From: Candidatus Omnitrophota bacterium | Lineage (GTDB): Bacteria > Omnitrophota > Gorgyraeia > Gygaellales > Profunditerraquicolaceae | Direction: 5' to 3' | Assembly (NCBI GenBank): GCA_018825985.1 | Contig: JAHKAP010000052.1 | Location: forward strand, 6,373-70,372 | Length of the DNA: 64,000 nt | Shown: one piece after another, positions 4,792 through 50,462 of the stretch | Layout of the letters: each line of letters opens with the position of its first letter | Numbering within the stretch: the stretch's first letter is position 1 | The notes under the pieces: generated by a model | The model's database searches: none | Told to the model about the DNA's origin: nothing | Seen by the model: only the letters and a program-made list of their open reading frames with translations | Made by a program: the position numbers and the translations under genes

Positions 4792-6965
4792 AGATGAATA
4801 ATAAAATAGTGCTGGATATTTCCGGGATGCATTGCGCCTCCTGCGCTTTAAATATTGAACAGTCATTGAAAAAAGTTGCCGGCGTAATTGGTTCCCGGGT
4901 TAATTTCGCTTCAGAAAAGGCATATATTGAGTTTGATCCCGATAGGTTAAATGTCCAGGATTTTATCCGGATAGTTGAGCACAGCGGGTATAAGGCCGCT
5001 GTTCCCGGGACAATGGATGCGGAAAAAGAGTCCCGGGATAAAGAAGTTAAGGCTTTAAGGACGAAATTCATCATCGCTCTGATCCTTTCATCCATCCTGA
5101 TGGTTATATCAATGATAAAGCATACACAAATGGTTATGCCCCAGTTTGTCTTATCTACTGCGGTATTGGTCTGTGGCTATCAGTTTTTTATCCGGGGGAT
5201 AACCGTGGTTTTTAAAAACAAACAGGCGAATATGGATACCCTGGTAGCTTTGGGGGTAGGCAGCGCCTATTTTTATAGTTTATGGGCAAGTCTTTTTGGA
5301 GGCGCTAATCTTTATTATGAGTCAGCCGCTTTTTTGCTTACTTTTATTTTATTGGGTAAATACCTTGAAGCAGCGACCAAGAGAAAGACTTCTCAGGCTA
5401 TCAGGCGACTCTGGGGATTAAGGCCCAAAACAGCTTTGGTTATCCGTGAGGATAAGGAGCAAGAGGTTGCCGTGGAAGATTTAGTAATTGGGGATATTAT
5501 TATTGTTAAACCCGGCCAGAGCATACCGGTGGACGGTAAGGTTATGCACGGTTATTCCAGCGTAGATGAGTCAATGGTGACCGGAGAGAGCTTGCCAATA
5601 GAGAAGACCATCAATTCCATGGTTATCGGGGGGACAATAAATAAATCCGGCTCCTTTAAATTTCAGGCCGAAAAAATAGGTAAAGATACCATTCTGGCCC
5701 AGATCATTAAATTAGTGGAAGAGGCCCAGGGGTCTAAGGCCCCTATCCAGAAGCTGGCAGATAAAATTTCGGGTTTTTTTGTGCCGGCTGTTTTATTGAT
5801 AGGTGCGCTGACGTTTATGATCTGGTTTTTTCTGGGGAAAAACCCTGATTTGGCCTTAAGTAATTTTATCTCGGTATTAATCATCGCTTGCCCTTGCGCC
5901 TTGGGGCTGGCTACTCCTACGGCTGTGATGATGGGAACAGGTATAGGAGCGAACAACGGCATACTTATTAAGAACGCCTCCAGTCTTGAGATTACCCATA
6001 AATCCGGGGTGGTTGTTTTTGATAAAACCGGGACCCTGACCGAAGGAAGGCCGTCTTTGACCGATGTAGTATTAATGAGAGCTAAAGATAGACGGGAAGT
6101 TTTGAAATACGCGGCCATAGCCGAGAAACGTTCCGAGCATCCTTTGGCCGAGGCTATTATGGCTGAGGTCAAGAAAGAAGATTTAGATATTCCTGACCCG
6201 GATTTGTTTAATTCCCTGGCCGGGAAAGGGGTGATTGCCAGGTTTAATTCAGAGGTAATAATTTTAGGGAATCGGAGGTTGTTCGGCGAAAGAAAGATTG
6301 ATTATTCTAATTTAGAAGATAAATTAGCGGCATTAGAAGCCCAGGGTAAGACTGTGATGATGGCCGGGTATAAAAACGAAATTTTGGGGATACTGGCTTT
6401 CGCAGATACCTTAAAAGAAACAGCTAAATCTACGGTAGAGGTGTTAAATAAAATGGGCAAAGAAGTCATAATGATCAGCGGAGATAATCTGGCTACAGCC
6501 AAAGCGATCGCGAAGGCCGCAGGCATAGAAAGAGTTTTGGCTGAAGTTCTGCCGCAGGACAAGGTTCAAGAGATAAAGAATATTCAGGCTAAAGGTTCGA
6601 CGGTGGTTATGGTGGGAGACGGGATAAATGACGCTCCGGCATTAGCCCAGGCTGATGTAGGCATCGCAATAGGTGCGGGAACGGATATAGCCATGGAATC
6701 GGCGGATATTGTATTGATCAGGGATGATTTGTTGGGCGTGATCCTGGCTATTGACTTATCTCGGTATACCTTAAGAAAGATTCGGCAGAATCTTTTCTGG
6801 GCTTTCTTTTATAACAGCATAAGCATACCTGTAGCCGCAGGCCTGCTATATCCGTTTTTTAAAATCTTGCTTAATCCTGTAGTTGCCGCCCTGGCCATGA
6901 CTTTCAGCTCAGTTTCAGTTGTGGTTAATTCGCTTATGATGAAAAGATACTGTTTTAGGCGGTAG
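4788..6965 (+). CDS. copA: Heavy-metal (Cu+-type) translocating P1B-type ATPase
   Basis: N-terminal HMA domain GMHCASCA, transmembrane CPC motif, phosphorylation site DKTGTLT, GDGINDAP hinge. Confidence 0.85.
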   Translation: MKMNNKIVLDISGMHCASCALNIEQSLKKVAGVIGSRVNFASEKAYIEFDPDRLNVQDFIRIVEHSGYKAAVPGTMDAEKESRDKEVKALRTKFIIALILSSILMVISMIKHTQMVMPQFVLSTAVLVCGYQFFIRGITVVFKNKQANMDTLVALGVGSAYFYSLWASLFGGANLYYESAAFLLTFILLGKYLEAATKRKTSQAIRRLWGLRPKTALVIREDKEQEVAVEDLVIGDIIIVKPGQSIPVDGKVMHGYSSVDESMVTGESLPIEKTINSMVIGGTINKSGSFKFQAEKIGKDTILAQIIKLVEEAQGSKAPIQKLADKISGFFVPAVLLIGALTFMIWFFLGKNPDLALSNFISVLIIACPCALGLATPTAVMMGTGIGANNGILIKNASSLEITHKSGVVVFDKTGTLTEGRPSLTDVVLMRAKDRREVLKYAAIAEKRSEHPLAEAIMAEVKKEDLDIPDPDLFNSLAGKGVIARFNSEVIILGNRRLFGERKIDYSNLEDKLAALEAQGKTVMMAGYKNEILGILAFADTLKETAKSTVEVLNKMGKEVIMISGDNLATAKAIAKAAGIERVLAEVLPQDKVQEIKNIQAKGSTVVMVGDGINDAPALAQADVGIAIGAGTDIAMESADIVLIRDDLLGVILAIDLSRYTLRKIRQNLFWAFFYNSISIPVAAGLLYPFFKILLNPVVAALAMTFSSVSVVVNSLMMKRYCFRR

Positions 6966-15697: not shown

Positions 15698-16921
15698 ATG
15701 ATTGTTTTCCCTCAGGGTTTTTTATGGGGCGCGGCCACTTCTGCCCATCAAGTCGAAGGCGAAAATAGAAATAATGATTGGTGGAAGTGGGAGAGGTCCG
15801 CAAATTTGAAAGAAACCTCCGGGAGCGCCTGCCGGCATTACCAGCTTTTTAAAGAAGACTTTGATCTGGCCCGGTCCCTCAATCATAATTGCCATCGTTT
15901 TTCAATCGAATGGAGCCGTATATTTCCTTCCAGCGGCGCAATTTCTCGCGAAGAGCTTACGCATTATCGGAATGTTATCCAGGCGTTAAAAGAACGGGGC
16001 CTGGAGCCTATAGTTAGTCTCCATCATTTTACCAATCCTCTTTGGTTCAGTAAATTAGGCGGCTGGGAGAATCCGGGATCTCAAGGGCACTACTTAAATT
16101 ATGTCCGCAGGGTAGTGGAAGAATTCGCCGATTTGGTTAAATATTGGGTGACTATTAATGAGCCTATGGTTTACGTTTATTATTCTTATGTTATCGGCGC
16201 CTGGCCCCCGCAGGAAAAATCTTTTTTAAAAGCCAGAAGAGTTACCGCTAATCTTATTTCCGCGCATACCCAAGCTTATAAATTGATCCAGGTAATTTAT
16301 AGAAATAAGGGATTGCCTAAGCCTGAGGTTGGCATCGCCAAGAATATGCAGGCTTTTGTTCCCTGCAAAAATAACTTTAGGAACAGATTGGCGGTTTATC
16401 TGCGGGATAAATCATTTAACTTCGATTTTCTAAACAAGTTGGCAAAGTCTAAAACCATGGATTTCATCGGGGTAAACTATTATACCCGTAGCCTGGTTGA
16501 GACTTCCAGTTGGTCGCTGAATAACGTATTGACCCGGATCTGCCAGGACAACCATAGTTCTCTTCTTAAGAATTCCTTAGGTTGGGATATTTACCCTGAA
16601 GGATTAGTCGACCTTTTATTAAGGCTCAAAATTTACGATCTTCCGGTGATAATCCTGGAGAATGGAATTTGTACTATGGATGATGCTCTAAGATGGAATT
16701 TTATTAATCAGCACCTGAAAAGTATAGGCATTGCCTTAGCCAAAGGAGTAAGGATTTCAGGTTATATCTATTGGTCCCTTTTGGATAATTTTGAATGGGA
16801 CAAAGGTTTTGGTCCCCGCTTCGGTTTAATCGGAGTAGATTATTCTGATTTCAGGCGCACGGTCAGAGAGAGCGCAAGAATTTTTTCCCTGGTTTGCAAA
16901 ACCGGGATACTTGAGCAATGA
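15698..16921 (+). CDS. Glycoside hydrolase family 1 beta-glucosidase
   Basis: GH1 N-terminus FPQGFLWGAATSAHQVEG, acid/base region TINEP, nucleophile region ILENG. Extended -10 TGgTATAAT at 15682-15690 lies only 7 nt from the ATG, with no SD, so the mRNA is probably leaderless. Confidence 0.8.
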   Translation: MIVFPQGFLWGAATSAHQVEGENRNNDWWKWERSANLKETSGSACRHYQLFKEDFDLARSLNHNCHRFSIEWSRIFPSSGAISREELTHYRNVIQALKERGLEPIVSLHHFTNPLWFSKLGGWENPGSQGHYLNYVRRVVEEFADLVKYWVTINEPMVYVYYSYVIGAWPPQEKSFLKARRVTANLISAHTQAYKLIQVIYRNKGLPKPEVGIAKNMQAFVPCKNNFRNRLAVYLRDKSFNFDFLNKLAKSKTMDFIGVNYYTRSLVETSSWSLNNVLTRICQDNHSSLLKNSLGWDIYPEGLVDLLLRLKIYDLPVIILENGICTMDDALRWNFINQHLKSIGIALAKGVRISGYIYWSLLDNFEWDKGFGPRFGLIGVDYSDFRRTVRESARIFSLVCKTGILEQ

Positions 16922-21950: not shown

Positions 21951-22526
21951 ATGGATATATTAAAACTTAAACCAGTTAACCTAAATTACGAGATCTTGTG
22001 TTTTCTTGAGGAGAGGCAGCTGATCCGCAGCTTAAGGCCTACCTTAAAGATATTACAAAATCACTCTGCCGGCGGGATGGTGGATACTATTTATACTTCC
22101 GCTTCCGAATTCGGATCGCATAAGCTTATTTGCATTGGTTTAAGCGCCGATTCCACCCGGATAGAGCTTAATTCTCATCCGGATAACGAGGAATTCATTA
22201 TCATTAATAATACCTTCACTAAATTCAAGCCTCTATATATGGCTATAGGTTTGCATAAACATAATATCCTGGAGGAGAAAGCTAAAAACAGAGTATTAAC
22301 ATCCGATGATATTATGCTCTTAAGGTTAAAATATAATAATGCCAAGACCAGCATTTTTACCATGCTTAAGGATACTCCCCACTGCGAATTAACCACTAAA
22401 GAAGAAGGCACCCATCCGGTTTTTTTCGTGTCTGAGCCCAGCAATTTAACTATGAATTACCTTAAGCTTGAAGGTTACGAACTCAGGCCTGATCACTCCA
22501 ACGATCACCTCCACTGCAAAAAATAG
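21951..22526 (+). CDS. Hypothetical protein (possible cupin-like fold)
   Basis: ORF with acceptable codon usage. No confident motif. Confidence 0.3.
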   Translation: MDILKLKPVNLNYEILCFLEERQLIRSLRPTLKILQNHSAGGMVDTIYTSASEFGSHKLICIGLSADSTRIELNSHPDNEEFIIINNTFTKFKPLYMAIGLHKHNILEEKAKNRVLTSDDIMLLRLKYNNAKTSIFTMLKDTPHCELTTKEEGTHPVFFVSEPSNLTMNYLKLEGYELRPDHSNDHLHCKK

Positions 22527-22684: not shown

Positions 22685-22774
22685 AGAGGGCAGACAGAGA
22701 CGTCCGGAACATTTATGGGGCGTCTTTTCCTGTTTTAGGATAGGTATAGTAAAGGTAAAATTAGGGGTATTGAA

Positions 22775-24979: not shown

Positions 24980-25152
24980 AGCGTTAGCCAGTAGTGATAG
25001 CTTGCGCCGCAAAAGTCTTTGCGGCACCAAGCAAAAAATATACGCCAGCCGGCATTTTTTGCTTGACAAAACATTTTGGGCATTTTAAGATAAGCGAGTA
25101 AAAAGACAGGGCCTTTTTTAGAATTTAGCAAGGGCGCGTAAGTTTTAATGAC

Positions 25153-26585
<1,433 letters not shown>

Positions 26586-26647: not shown

Positions 26648-26800
26648 TTGACAAATAAAAATTAAGTGCTATATTTATAATAGAAGTACAAAGGTGTAAA
26701 AGAACGCAGGCGTTCGCTCTAAAGGCGAACGTTTTTTTATTTGTAAGGGACTAAAGGCGGTCCAATACCCAATAAAGGGTAAGGGCCGCCTTTTTATTTT
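26648..26800 (+). promoter_or_regulatory. Promoter (TTGACA-16-TATATT) plus leader with mutually exclusive hairpins and two terminator-like structures ahead of the sigma-factor gene
   Basis: GAACG-CAGG-CGUUC hairpin (26702-26715) overlaps terminator CGUUCGC-UCUAAAG-GCGAACG-U7 (26711-26738). Second hairpin GGCGGUCC/GGGCCGCC-U-run (26756-26800) abuts the SD. Confidence 0.45.
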
Positions 26801-26812
26801 AGGAGCGAAGAT

Positions 26813-27328
26813 ATGGAATTTAATGATTTATCAGCTAAATTATCCTCTAAATTGAAGGCTATAGCTTATAGGCTTAATCATCAGTTCACTTTTTTTAACG
26901 AAGAAGACCTATATCAGGAAGCCCTGATTCGTTTATGGGAAGATTCCCGGACCGGGCGCTTAGATGATAAAACAGACAGTTATATCTTACAAGGGTGTTA
27001 TTTTCATCTAAAAAATTATATCCGCAAGAACAGGGTAAAGACAAAGTTGGTGAGTATTGAGGAGAATGTCGGACAGGGGGAAAATAGTTTTGAGGACTTA
27101 TTTTTAAAAGATGAGAAATCGCCTGATCTGCGGGACCGTTTGAACGACTTATTCTTGGCAGAGACGATCCTTAATAACGGGTTTACGTTAAGAGAAAAAC
27201 AGGTCCTCAGGGGATACGCCGAAGGCCTGACTACCCGCCAGATCGGGGAGAAACTGGGGGTTTCGCATGTCAGCGTAGTCAAGATGACTGATAGGATTAG
27301 AAAAAAAAGCCGGAGATATATCGATTAA
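26813..27328 (+). CDS. Sigma-70 family (ECF-like) RNA polymerase sigma factor
   Basis: Region 2-like EDLYQEALIRLWE. Region 4 HTH LTTRQIGEKLGVSHVSVVKM. 171 aa. Confidence 0.65.
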   Translation: MEFNDLSAKLSSKLKAIAYRLNHQFTFFNEEDLYQEALIRLWEDSRTGRLDDKTDSYILQGCYFHLKNYIRKNRVKTKLVSIEENVGQGENSFEDLFLKDEKSPDLRDRLNDLFLAETILNNGFTLREKQVLRGYAEGLTTRQIGEKLGVSHVSVVKMTDRIRKKSRRYID

Positions 27329-27397
27329 ATCCTGACCCCATTTCCCTGATTAGAACCGTCCCTGTTTAAAAAATTGGTTACCAGAGACGGCATATTT

Positions 27398-27473
27398 TTA
27401 CTTGTAATAATGTAGCAGACACGTAGATGTGTAAAAAACAGAGGCGTTCTAGAAATTAAAGAACGCTTTTTTT
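27398..27473 (+). promoter_or_regulatory. TTACTTGTAA palindromic motif plus GCGUUCU/AGAACGC-U7 terminator hairpin (paralog of the 26648 and 32399 leaders)
   Basis: Motif at 27398-27407. Hairpin 27444-27466 followed by T7. Confidence 0.4.
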
Positions 27474-27536
27474 ATTACCGTAATGGGTAAGCCAGCAATC
27501 ATATAAGCTGGGAGATATTACGAGTTTTAAAGACCG

Positions 27537-27582
27537 AGACGTCTTTTAAAATCCAAATAAGGATAAAAGACGTCTTTTTTTT
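27537..27582 (+). promoter_or_regulatory. GACGTC-palindrome terminator hairpin in the porin-amt leader
   Basis: AGACGUCUUUU / AAAAGACGUCU 11-bp stem with a 17-nt loop, followed by U8. Further small hairpins at 27583-27621 before the GGAGG RBS. Confidence 0.45.
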
Positions 27583-30092: not shown

Positions 30093-30116
30093 GCTTTTGG
30101 TTACCGGGGTAAACTT

Positions 30117-30150
30117 AATTTTACTTGTAAAATATTGGGTAATTTGTGGT
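30117..30150 (+). promoter_or_regulatory. AATTTTAC-TT-GTAAAAT palindrome plus GGTAA direct repeats upstream of glnN
   Basis: Near-perfect 17-bp palindrome centred on TTACTTGTAA (30121-30130). GGTAA half-sites at +12 and +22. Confidence 0.35.
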
Positions 30151-30182
30151 AAAATAATATATAAATAAAAAAGGGGGAAGTT

Positions 30183-32372: not shown

Positions 32373-32398
32373 AAAAAGGTTACCAGGCGGCTACAATC

Positions 32399-32508
32399 TT
32401 TACTTGTATATATAGGTAAAGACTGCACGTTGTAGTGCATCAGTAGCCGACTAATTTAAAGAACGCAGGCGTTCATCTTCGTTTGGTAACGGGGTGAGCG
32501 CCTTTTTT
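32399..32508 (+). promoter_or_regulatory. Leader with TTTACTTGTA motif, TGCAC-N6-GTGCA palindrome, and GAACG-CAGG-CGUUC hairpin overlapping a terminator
   Basis: AAAGAACGCAGGCGTTC 17-mer is identical to the one at 26697-26715. Terminator GGCGUUCA/UGAGCGCC followed by U6 (32468-32508). NtrC-box-like palindrome at 32424-32439. Confidence 0.45.
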
Positions 32509-32541: not shown

Positions 32542-32919
32542 ATGATCACAATATTGATCACTGAAGACGAATTAAAAGCCAAGGATGCCTTGGCTAAGGC
32601 GCTCTCTCAGGAAGGGTATGCCTTATCCGAAGGTTTTAATGATTCGAATATGATCCGGATAGTAAAAAAAGATTGTATCCGGGATTTGGCTTTTATCAAA
32701 GATAAAGTGATCGAGCTGGAAGACGCTTTAGTCAATGAAAAGAAAGGGTTTTTGTATAAGTCTGTGTTGGAGGCTATTGAAAAACCACTTATTGAACATA
32801 TCCTGGAGCGCACCGAGGGAAATCAGTTAAAGGCAGCCAGGATTCTGGGGATTAACCGTAATACTATGCGCTCTAAAATTAAAAAACTGGGGATTAGCGC
32901 GGCAAAATGGAAGGTTTGA
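32542..32919 (+). CDS. Stand-alone Fis/NtrC-type HTH DNA-binding protein
   Basis: C-terminal 45 aa (EKPLIEHILERTEGNQLKAARILGINRNTMRSKIKKLGI) match the HTH_8 DNA-binding domain of sigma54 activators. No receiver or AAA+ domain. Confidence 0.6.
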   Translation: MITILITEDELKAKDALAKALSQEGYALSEGFNDSNMIRIVKKDCIRDLAFIKDKVIELEDALVNEKKGFLYKSVLEAIEKPLIEHILERTEGNQLKAARILGINRNTMRSKIKKLGISAAKWKV

Positions 32920-41495: not shown

Positions 41496-43224
<1,729 letters not shown>

Positions 43225-48685: not shown

Positions 48686-50080
48686 ATGCCGGTAAAGATT
48701 AAATTCTTAGGCGGAGTAAGGACAGTCACTGGTTCCAGTCATCTTATCTCAACCGATAAATCCGAAATACTCCTGGATGCCGGTCTGTTTCAGGGCCACC
48801 GCAATGATTTCTATGATATCAATACTACCTTTAGCTATAATCCCCGTAAGCTCAATGCCATGCTTTTATCCCATGCCCATATCGACCATAGCGGGAATAT
48901 CCCCAGCCTTTTGAAAAAAGGGATGCGCTGTAAGATATATACTACCGCTGCAACCCGTGATCTATGTAAATTAATGCTCGAAGATTCCGGAAAGATCCAG
49001 GAAGAAGATATCCGCTACGTGAATAAGATCAACCGCAGGTTGGGCCTTCCTTTGAGAAAAGCTCTTTATAACAGGAAAGAGGCCCGCCACGCTGCCAAGA
49101 GGTTTCATCCGGTCCCTTATAGTCAGAAGACCTGCGTGGCCAATAATGTTTTCGCTACTTTTTATGATGCCGGCCATATCCTGGGTTCTTCGATCATAGT
49201 CTTAGATATCAAGGATGGAGTTCAAAGTATCCGTTTAGGTTATGCCGTAGATTTAGGCAGAAGAAACCTGCCGCTCTTAAATGATCCCTTTATTCCTACG
49301 GGCCTGGATTATCTTATTATAGAGAGTACTTACGGAGGAAGGGTGCGGCCGCCTATAGAAGAAGCCAAGATCAAGCTTAAAGAGGTTATTCTGCGCACGA
49401 TCGAGCGCAAAGGAAAGATCCTGATCCCGGCTTTTACCTTGGAACGGACCCAGGAAGTGGTTTATTTTTTAAGTGAGCTCTTTAAAGATAAATCTCTTCC
49501 TTTTATTCCGGTTTATGTCGACAGCCCATTAGCCACGGATATAACCGATGTATTTAAATACCATCTGGATTACCTTAATCAAGAGACCCGCCAACATATA
49601 TCCCAGGGCCAGAGCCCTTTTGAATTTTTGAATTTAAGTTATATCCGCGACCAGAAAGAATCCAAAACCCTGAATAATGACCGCCGGCCGATGATAATCA
49701 TTGCCGGGTGCGGGATGTGTGAGTCCGGCAGGATCGTTCATCACATTAAGAATAATATTGAGGATTCCCGCAATACTATACTGGTGGTTGGCTATATGGC
49801 CAAGAATACCTTAGGCAAACGGATCGTGGAAAAGACCCCTTTTGTGCGTATTTTCGGTATTGAATATCAGTTAAATGCCGAGGTGGTAGTTATCAATTCG
49901 TTCTCCGGGCACGCGGACAAAAATGAACTGACGGATTTTATAACTCAATCCCTGCCTTTAAAAAGGATATTCTTGGTCCACGGAGACATGGAGCAGACCC
50001 AGCCGTTATTCGAAAATCTCTCTCAGATATGCCAGAATGTTTACATCCCGGCTAAAGACGAAGAAGTCTTGCTTGAGTAA
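48686..50080 (+). CDS. MBL-fold beta-CASP ribonuclease (RNA-metabolising metallo-beta-lactamase)
   Basis: HxHxDH motif (HAHIDHSG), beta-CASP motifs and C-terminal RMMBL-like region. Confidence 0.7.
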   Translation: MPVKIKFLGGVRTVTGSSHLISTDKSEILLDAGLFQGHRNDFYDINTTFSYNPRKLNAMLLSHAHIDHSGNIPSLLKKGMRCKIYTTAATRDLCKLMLEDSGKIQEEDIRYVNKINRRLGLPLRKALYNRKEARHAAKRFHPVPYSQKTCVANNVFATFYDAGHILGSSIIVLDIKDGVQSIRLGYAVDLGRRNLPLLNDPFIPTGLDYLIIESTYGGRVRPPIEEAKIKLKEVILRTIERKGKILIPAFTLERTQEVVYFLSELFKDKSLPFIPVYVDSPLATDITDVFKYHLDYLNQETRQHISQGQSPFEFLNLSYIRDQKESKTLNNDRRPMIIIAGCGMCESGRIVHHIKNNIEDSRNTILVVGYMAKNTLGKRIVEKTPFVRIFGIEYQLNAEVVVINSFSGHADKNELTDFITQSLPLKRIFLVHGDMEQTQPLFENLSQICQNVYIPAKDEEVLLE

Positions 50081-50229: not shown

Positions 50230-50457
50230 ATGGTAGGCGGATTTTCAACACCCAAAAAAGATAAAGAACTTAAGGTCTCCGGAGGAGAGAAAGTAAAAAA
50301 AGGCCAGATACTTTGCCGGCAGGTTGGCGGGTATAAAGCAGGCGTTAATGTGAGCGGTATAGCTATTTTGCACGCTGACTGCGATGGAAAAGTATCTTTT
50401 TCCCGTAAAAAGACCGGTTCCGGAAAACTAAGGACTTTTATCAACGTTTTATCTTAA
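50230..50457 (+). CDS. rpmA: Divergent ribosomal protein L27-like
   Basis: Core (CRQVGGYKAGVNV...ADCDGKVSF) resembles L27. The N-terminus is atypical and there is no adjacent rplU. GGAGG RBS. Confidence 0.4.
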   Translation: MVGGFSTPKKDKELKVSGGEKVKKGQILCRQVGGYKAGVNVSGIAILHADCDGKVSFSRKKTGSGKLRTFINVLS

Positions 50458-50462
50458 GATAA

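Follow-up and report, generated by a model that had tools for sequence, protein, structure and literature searches.

The window analyzed here is a stretch of 64,000 nucleotides from a metagenome-assembled genome (MAG) of a Candidatus Omnitrophota bacterium (contig JAHKAP010000052.1 of assembly GCA_018825985.1), a species also contained in GCA_018812325.1 and other assemblies. Its plus strand carries, in order, a DHODB-FeS/gltD-like pair, gdhA and the gene of a 171-residue sigma-70-family factor (26813–27328), followed on the 3′ side by a Gcw_chp porin-amtB-PII unit, a type III glnA, a unit of a 125-residue HTH_8 protein with gltB and gltD, and later pyrG and carAB. The leaders of these genes, that of the sigma gene foremost, are the subject of this work. 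They contain small hairpins with six-base loops that overlap intrinsic terminators, and we read them as probable ANTAR-type transcription attenuators. All evidence is computational, drawn from sequence, folding and comparison with 80 Omnitrophota loci retrieved through alignment of sigma homologs; the scanned sequence amounts to 1.02 Mb (loci L001–L081 plus the window). Among these loci, L081 comes from a close relative whose sigma protein is 88% identical to that of the window.

The leader of the sigma gene opens with a sigma-70-type promoter, TTGACA-N16-TGcTATATT (26648–26675; this and all features below lie on the plus strand), which agrees with the consensus at 11 of 12 positions, has a TG extension and is the top match between 24000 and 36000. 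Relatives have TTGACA-N17-TAtAcT at the equivalent position. The first hairpin, P1 (26687–26698, UAC-AAAGGU-GUA), has a hexaloop with A at position 1 (A1) and G at position 4 (G4); it lies within a 30.7-bit match to R1, a covariance model built from 41 P1-P2 sequences, and orthologous P1 hairpins in 37 relatives read UAC-AGCGUU-GUA or similar. The second hairpin, P2 (26702–26715, GAAC-GCAGGC-GUUC, with G4 at 26709), belongs to the same match. Its 3′ arm is part of the 5′ arm of terminator T1 (26708–26740), an 11-pair stem (26708–26734) followed by U7, and the two structures fold at −4.8 and −13.7 kcal/mol, respectively. The third hairpin, P3 (26748–26763, GGACU-AAAGGC-GGUCC, again A1 and G4), has the ortholog GGAC-UAAGGC-GUCC in 41 relatives and overlaps through its 3′ arm a second terminator, T2 (26754–26797), which ends just 5′ of the Shine-Dalgarno sequence (SD) of the sigma gene. 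An initial annotation of this DNA had recorded a second hairpin and U-run before the sigma gene, and this corresponds to the T2 hairpin (26754–26793, −25.5 kcal/mol). In the RNAalifold consensus, pairing between the 3′ arm of P3 and the distal arm of T2 holds in 42/42 sequences, while the stem switches among sequences between G-C and G-U and between U-A and U-G.

About 45 of the 80 sigma loci show the same order as window positions 26648–26812, namely promoter-P1-P2/T1-P3/T2-SD-ATG. The relatives' leaders have P1 as UAC-AGCGUU-GUA, P2 as AGAC-ACAGAA-GUCU overlapping T1, and P3 as GGAC-UAAGGC-GUCC overlapping T2.

The initial annotation had singled out a 17-mer, AAAGAACGCAGGCGTTC, shared by the leaders of the sigma gene and of the NtrC-HTH/gltBD operon. 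The 17-mer is indeed exact at 26699–26715 and 32458–32474, with a copy at 27433–27449 that has 3 mismatches, and at least three matches occurred in 0 of 100 dinucleotide-preserving shuffles. A small hairpin forms at each copy, and its 3′ arm doubles as the 5′ arm of a far stronger terminator; the overlap that had been claimed is found at both exact sites, where GAAC-GCAGGC-GUUC (26702–26715 and 32461–32474) runs into the stems 26708–26734, then U7, and 32467–32502, then U6. Since the window equivalents of P1, P2 and P3 align with the architecture of the relatives' leaders, the 17-mer is an AAA linker plus the P2 hairpin. In L081, the gltBD leader keeps the loop GCAGGC; the leader 5′ of nadE-sigma has UCAGAC. 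The exact repetition of the 17-mer is an accident specific to the window's lineage. Judged by these comparisons, the functional unit would be a hexaloop hairpin with G at position 4, rather than the 17-mer sequence.

A model-free descriptor scan required at least 3 Watson-Crick pairs closing a hexaloop and a 3′ arm that also takes part in an RNAfold hairpin, stable to −7 kcal/mol or beyond, ending at a T-run. In the porin-amtB-PII leader, P1 (27420–27431, CAC-GUAGAU-GUG, G1 and G4) falls within a 26.9-bit R1 match (27418–27450) and has the counterpart ACAC-AUAGAA-GUGU in L081. The P2 hairpin detected by the scan (27437–27448, AAC-AGAGGC-GUU, A1 and G4) sits in the 3-mismatch copy of the 17-mer and overlaps the terminator GCGUUCU...AGAACGC, then U7 (27443–27473, −7.5 to −9.4 kcal/mol), which bears out the third paralog that had been placed before porin-amt; AAC-ANNGGC-GUU orthologs precede porin/amtB genes in ~25 relatives. 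The same leader holds a second module, AAAGAC-CGAGAC-GUCUUU (27529–27546, C1 and G4), for which relatives have AGAC-GCAGGC-GUCU, and which overlaps a terminator followed by U8 (27536–27582, −15.5 to −16.9 kcal/mol). In the gltBD leader, P1 is UGCAC-GUUGUA-GUGCA (32424–32439, G1 and G4, −6.3 kcal/mol; GCAC-NNNGYA-GUGC in relatives), and the second exact 17-mer copy provides the AAA linker and P2 (32461–32474), also found by the scan. This P2 overlaps the terminator GGCGUUCA...UGAGCGCC, then U6 (32467–32508, −20.4 to −21.8 kcal/mol), and 12 other loci have GAAC-AUAGAC-GUUC-like orthologs of it ahead of HTH8 genes. Thus, three leaders carry a P1 plus P2 tandem with stems of at least 3 bp and a variable linker (26687–26715, 27420–27448 and 32424–32474).

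Three more modules consist of a hexaloop hairpin overlapping a terminator. The gdhA leader has GAC-AAAGAC-GUC (25150–25161, A1 and G4; 25150–25190 with its terminator), found by descriptor scan and folding, which is identical in L081 and reads GAC-AAAGGC-GUC before gdhA in L071. The DHODB-FeS/gltD-like operon has GAC-AGAGAC-GUC (22693–22704, A1 and G4; 22693–22728 with its terminator), with orthologs in L081, L006 and L065, and pyrG, encoding CTP synthase, has AAAC-AAAGGC-GUUU (41556–41569, A1 and G4; 41556–41605 with a terminator of −22 kcal/mol). The pyrG leader (41509–41610) has a single hexaloop, and its ATG lies only ~6 nt past the U-run, with no obvious SD.

In total, the window contains eight modules in six transcription units (22693, 25150, 26702, 26748, 27437, 27529, 32461 and 41556): one each for the gltD-like operon, gdhA, HTH8-gltBD and pyrG, and two each for sigma and porin-amtB-PII. 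The three to four elements counted in the initial annotation are all among them, though its total was too low; the P1 hairpins of all three tandem leaders, P3 at 26748–26763 and the modules at 22693, 25150, 27529 and 41556 are additional. Six-base loops can be drawn for all 11 window hairpins and G4 is present in 11/11, whereas A1 occurs in 6/11, the exceptions including the 17-mer loop (G1) and the loop at 27535 (C1).

The 3′ arm of the last hairpin lies within the terminator 5′ arm, a stem followed by a U-run, in 8/8 modules. The mutually exclusive antiterminator/terminator layout postulated earlier is therefore seen in all three of the leaders first described, and it is conserved across the phylum. 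By folding, the small hairpins have 0 to −6.3 kcal/mol and the terminators −7.5 to −25.5 kcal/mol; folded on its own, the small hairpin is 7–23 kcal/mol weaker than the terminator in 7/8 modules. Because the small hairpins fold so much more weakly, termination is predicted to be the default state, and read-through would require a trans-acting factor that stabilizes the small hairpin. A metabolite acting without protein, e.g. glutamine or 2-oxoglutarate, would be a conceivable alternative, as riboswitches use mutually exclusive layouts too and the downstream genes serve nitrogen assimilation. However, the same energy gap speaks against it, and a conserved unit of 12–16 nt, in which only one or two loop bases are constant, has no room for a ligand pocket. 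Rfam gave no family for the leaders, either at the gathering threshold or with E up to 10, and the best score between 24900 and 32600, 26.8 bits, belongs to an unrelated snoRNA model. Given the size of the conserved unit and the lack of an Rfam family, we dropped the riboswitch explanation as exceedingly unlikely. The only gathering-level Rfam match in the whole window is a c-di-GMP-I riboswitch (RF01051, 15424–15581, 41 bits against a gathering score of 35), located 5′ of a glycoside hydrolase family 1 gene at 15698. HutP-type and TRAP-type triplet repeats were not seen in the sequence.

Across the scanned loci, R1 has 113 matches, of which 111 are on the gene strand. Loops of six bases make up 91/110 of the P1 and 107/110 of the P2 loops among distinct R1 matches. 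Within them, positions 2 and 3 are free, whereas A1 and G4 recur: P1 loops have A1 in 85/91 and G4 in 91/91, and P2 loops have A1 in 81/107 and G4 in 101/107. With its 20-nt linker, the gltBD leader is not recognized by R1 as a dual motif, but the descriptor scan confirms it. One R1 match, at 50054–50070 (AAAGAC-GAAGAA-GUCUU), was discarded since it is inside the beta-CASP gene and has no terminator downstream. (A small open reading frame (ORF) at 50232–50459, between the beta-CASP and M48 peptidase genes, has a weak Ribosomal_L27 match in the public record.) With the model-free scan, G4 is found in 192/235 noncoding versus 51/139 coding matches. Comparison of the window with L081, L002 and L009 (loops GCAGGC, UCAGAC and AUUGAC) shows that G4 and the hexaloop length are kept and the other positions change.

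Strand and loop data also bear on the idea that the inverted repeats are DNA operators, bound by the HTH_8 protein or another repressor, or else constitutive terminators or insulators that lack a regulated alternative. GAACGC-AG-GCGTTC is a perfect 14-bp palindrome, and the gene of a small Fis-type helix-turn-helix protein starts just downstream, at 32542. Yet in orthologs such as GAAC-AUAGAC-GUUC the palindrome is confined to the 4-bp stem, R1 matches favor the gene strand by 111 to 2, the stems covary and T2 contains G-U wobble substitutions; constitutive terminators placed between promoter and gene would silence eight transcription units. The operator reading of the palindrome was rejected on the non-palindromic loops of its orthologs and the strand specificity, and the alternative as a whole is highly unlikely. 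The product of the gene at 32542–32919, 125 residues long and co-transcribed with gltB, has a C-terminal Fis/NtrC-type HTH_8 domain and a faintly receiver-like N terminus.

Pairing is maintained among the relatives. In an alignment of 41 leaders (A2), 97.4% of the cells are paired, compared with 27–60% in slid controls. A further alignment, A3, which was fitted to the model R1, has 82 double-change cells versus 31 in shuffles (0/500); U-A and C-G replace each other (61/37), as do G-C and A-U (67/30).

The genes behind the noncoding G4 modules are those of the sigma factor, two porin families, amtB, PII, glnA, HTH8-gltB, nadE, gdhA, a gltD-like operon, a nifH-like gene and pyrG; the glnA targets include both type III and a ~500-residue glutamine synthetase-like protein. 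In L021, a module AAC-AGAGGC-GUU with a terminator (1104–1115) precedes the nifH-like gene (MRKIAIYGKGGIGKSTT...), so the regulon would include nitrogenase in some Omnitrophota. The initial annotation had left open whether the leaders are cis attenuators or a family of small terminated RNAs, and the former are favored here. In the latter case, the short leader RNAs would be trans-acting products, such as decoys titrating an ANTAR protein in the manner of EutX/Rli55. Each leader would indeed give a terminated RNA of 50–110 nt with one or two hexaloops, and EutX sequesters EutV through hexaloops (PMC8934654). Every module, however, separates a promoter from the gene that depends on it, no second promoter occurs past the terminator, and the associated genes form a coherent regulon. 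A decoy effect would moreover add to cis attenuation and not replace it, and as the principal function we consider it very unlikely.

We therefore interpret the leaders as cis-acting, ANTAR-type transcription attenuators in front of at least six nitrogen-assimilation units, a new example of a known mechanism, with a probability of about 0.72. The identification rests on the match between the loop signature and the published ANTAR substrate, which consists of two hairpins of at least 3 bp with A1 and G4 hexaloops, the second (P2) sharing sequence with an intrinsic terminator (PMC3369931). The structure of EutV with RNA shows base-specific contact at G4 only and none at A1, and the same study takes a single hexaloop as the revised minimal binding motif (PMC8934654); hence, a variable position 1 and modules with one hairpin also fit. 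Transcription would start at the promoter just upstream, and the nascent RNA would first form one or two weak hairpins with 3–5 bp stems and a six-base loop with G at position 4. In the last of these hairpins (P2 or P3), the 3′ arm also belongs to the 5′ arm of the much more stable terminator. Without a factor, the terminator would form and transcription would stop 5′ of the gene. A dimeric ANTAR protein, probably a one-component GAF-ANTAR protein of ~240 residues, would bind the hexaloops via the flipped-out G4 and hold the small hairpin closed, so that the terminator is blocked and RNA polymerase reads through. We infer both this binding and the direction of the response.

Candidates for the effector are found in the relatives. 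An ANTAR-domain probe, used as a lead only, matched 40 proteins of ~240 residues in their loci, and the four that were then checked with Pfam all contain GAF and ANTAR domains (PF03861, 63–73 bits, cut-off 27.3). The ANTAR part aligns to the Rv1626, EutV and NasR chains, and Tyr 209 and Met 217 have the 8-residue spacing of Tyr 164 and Met 172 in EutV, a likeness of spacing only and not of a residue-level alignment. Of the 41 leader-bearing loci for which more than 1.3 kb of upstream sequence is available, 18 have a GAF-ANTAR gene that ends less than 500 nt 5′ of the leader; among all 80 loci, 36 have such a gene no farther than 8 kb upstream. Proteins of this family are common in Omnitrophota. 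The best 120 homologs are all at least 87% identical to the L010 protein. GAF-ANTAR is a recognized architecture, for which we found no characterized member in the literature (PMC7496416). The best NCBIfam matches of the GAF domain are the NifA N terminus and PtsP. GAF domains of NifA and PtsP sense 2-oxoglutarate and glutamine. By analogy, since the GAF domain most resembles these two, it probably responds to a metabolite that reports nitrogen status, for instance 2-oxoglutarate or glutamine. Among the effector candidates named in the initial annotation, an RNA-binding antiterminator thus finds a likely counterpart in the ANTAR-domain protein, whereas a metabolite acting directly on the RNA does not, for the reasons of size and missing Rfam family given above.

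Several observations weigh against this interpretation. The window itself has no detectable ANTAR gene (best tblastn E-value 0.09; Pfam search of ~60 of the 74 ORFs of at least 100 residues), nor do the added flanks of ~7.6 kb before its start and 0.4 kb past its end, and none lies within 10 kb of the sigma gene in L081; at the position of GAF-ANTAR in the relatives, the window's lineage has gdhA or nadE. Five of the eight modules (22693, 25150, 26748, 27529 and 41556) are single hexaloops with no recognizable P1 partner. The 17-mer loop GCAGGC starts with G instead of A, and the relatives' P3 loop has U at position 1. In addition, a G1-C6 pair within GCAGGC can extend the stem to 5 bp and leave a CAGG tetraloop, the form preferred by RNAfold, and this form might hinder the presentation of G4. 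Finally, the stems are mostly invariant within orthologous leaders, and much of the covariation is across different leaders or lineages. Because of this, and because A3 is model-fitted, the pair counts are supportive but short of decisive.

Some of these points would favor the main rival, in which the same attenuators are worked in this lineage by another RNA-binding effector, be it a PAS-domain, PII-controlled or other protein, the ANTAR protein having been lost or replaced. Besides the missing ANTAR gene and the G-initial loops of the 17-mer copies, it could draw on a 219-residue PAS_9 protein in L081 (7491–8150), encoded directly 5′ of the nadE-sigma leader, the place of GAF-ANTAR in other lineages. 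PAS_9, however, is not an RNA-binding domain, and the conservation of G4 and hexaloop length amid varying loop positions is what ANTAR recognition predicts. Moreover, about half of the leader-bearing relatives also have no linked ANTAR gene, so absent linkage says little about absence of the gene. Two ORFs considered as alternative effectors were rejected: one of 191 residues at 21951 has no Pfam match, and the 219-residue L081 protein has a PAS domain only. We judge another effector unlikely, and we infer from the frequent lack of linkage among relatives and from the retention of G4 while other loop bases change that the ANTAR gene of the window's genome is unlinked, elsewhere in the genome.

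The product of the sigma gene belongs to the sigma-70 family by TIGR02937 (48.4 bits, cut-off 42.9), with a weak Pfam Sigma70_r2 match and a GerE-type region 4. With regions 2 and 4 only and a length of 171 residues, it fits the extracytoplasmic function (ECF) type (~170–200 residues). The protein is 100% identical to an NCBI Omnitrophota protein, and among 928 homologs all those with a named source are from Omnitrophota/Omnitrophica. All 138 occurrences of a promoter-like motif, GTTACC-N16-YACTTGTA, are on the gene strand, with none on the opposite one; the spacing is N16 in each, and 78 of 82 sources contain the motif. It precedes porin/amtB/PII, glnA, HTH8-gltB and nifH-like genes. In the window, a motif scan places GTTACC-N16-TACTTGTA before porin-amtB-PII (27377–27406), type III glnA (30100–30129) and HTH8-gltB-gltD (32379–32408). 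No attenuator was found after the motif in the window's glnA leader (30093–30182), where relatives have AGAAC-AGAGGC-GUUCU and a terminator. The motif is probably read by the attenuated ECF-type sigma factor.

Together, these elements suggest two-layer, feed-forward control of nitrogen assimilation, in which the switch would guard both the sigma gene, with two attenuators in series, and the operons with GTTACC-N16-TACTTGTA promoters. The full circuit would have three tiers: GAF-ANTAR gates sigma through the serial attenuators, sigma reads the phylum-wide promoter GTTACC-N16-YACTTGTA, and GAF-ANTAR acts again in most of the target leaders. We advance this circuit tentatively, at somewhat below even odds. 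If true, it would be a feed-forward AND gate of RNA switches and a sigma factor that is without description elsewhere, and would provide the first functional assignment for the GAF-ANTAR architecture.

Two other features were noted in passing. A single half-copy of an inverted repeat, GGGACGGTTC...GAACCGTCCC, lies at 27353–27362; the repeat is intergenic, looks like a repetitive extragenic palindrome and occurs in 26 of 93 loci of Omnitrophota, mostly as −/+ pairs. In L081, a leader of ~400 nt (5050–5445) upstream of an amino-acid permease ends with a terminator-like hairpin.

ANTAR nitrogen regulons have been known since 2010–2012 and the RNA mechanism is not new, so what is gained is breadth and circuit design, not a new principle. 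A limited literature search found no description of an Omnitrophota version. The present data would extend ANTAR-type antitermination to this phylum with more than 100 instances, which could seed an Rfam-style family with a relaxed loop position 1. They also point to GAF-ANTAR as effector, with predicted RNA targets that make the architecture testable in vitro, and offer a likely sigma/promoter pair for annotating nitrogen regulons in Omnitrophota MAGs. For a phylum without cultured members, the outcome is a concrete model of nitrogen-assimilation control.

Among the closest known systems are EutV/eut of Enterococcus faecalis, NasR/nasF of Klebsiella oxytoca and AmiR/amiE of Pseudomonas aeruginosa (Ramesh et al. 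2012, PMC3369931; Walshe et al. 2022, PMC8934654). Like the Omnitrophota leaders, their substrates have two short hexaloop hairpins with G4 and usually A1, a variable linker, and a P2 whose 3′ arm is common to an intrinsic terminator; their targets belong to nitrogen metabolism, with several elements per genome forming a regulon. They differ in the effector, which carries a receiver, pseudo-receiver or NIT domain, whereas the likely Omnitrophota effector has a GAF domain. The Omnitrophota also have many single-hexaloop modules, with G, U or C at position 1 in a substantial minority, and two serial modules that guard a sigma-factor gene, in an uncultured phylum.

Also comparable are the predicted ANTAR nitrogen regulons of Desulfotomaculum acetoxidans, D. 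reducens and Pelobacter carbinolicus, which comprise the same gene classes as the Omnitrophota modules (Ramesh et al. 2012, PMC3369931). As in the Omnitrophota, the elements are numerous, and they stand before PII, ammonium transporter, glutamine synthetase, glutamate synthase and nitrogenase genes; D. acetoxidans has 13 in six transcription units, compared with eight modules in six units in the window. These regulons are from other phyla, with no associated sigma factor or common promoter motif reported, and were predicted with a covariance model requiring A1, a position that is relaxed in Omnitrophota.

A parallel in circuit design is the GnfL/GnfM-GnfK/GnfR cascade of Geobacter sulfurreducens, in which an ANTAR antiterminator acts on terminators in the amtB, glnK and nif leaders (Ueki and Lovley 2010, PMC2995071). 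Both systems have two layers of nitrogen control, a dedicated initiation system and an ANTAR antiterminator, and the GnfR site CAGGCAANGGCGCC reads GGC-AANGGC-GCC, which is the ANNGGC loop pattern of the Omnitrophota. GnfR is a response regulator, whereas the Omnitrophota candidate is a GAF protein. In Geobacter, initiation depends on RpoN with an enhancer-binding protein and switches on the ANTAR regulator, while the Omnitrophota apparently use an ECF-type sigma factor with its own motif. The placement of attenuators upstream of a dedicated sigma factor is the unusual part of the circuit, and because of it the order of the two layers looks reversed relative to Geobacter.

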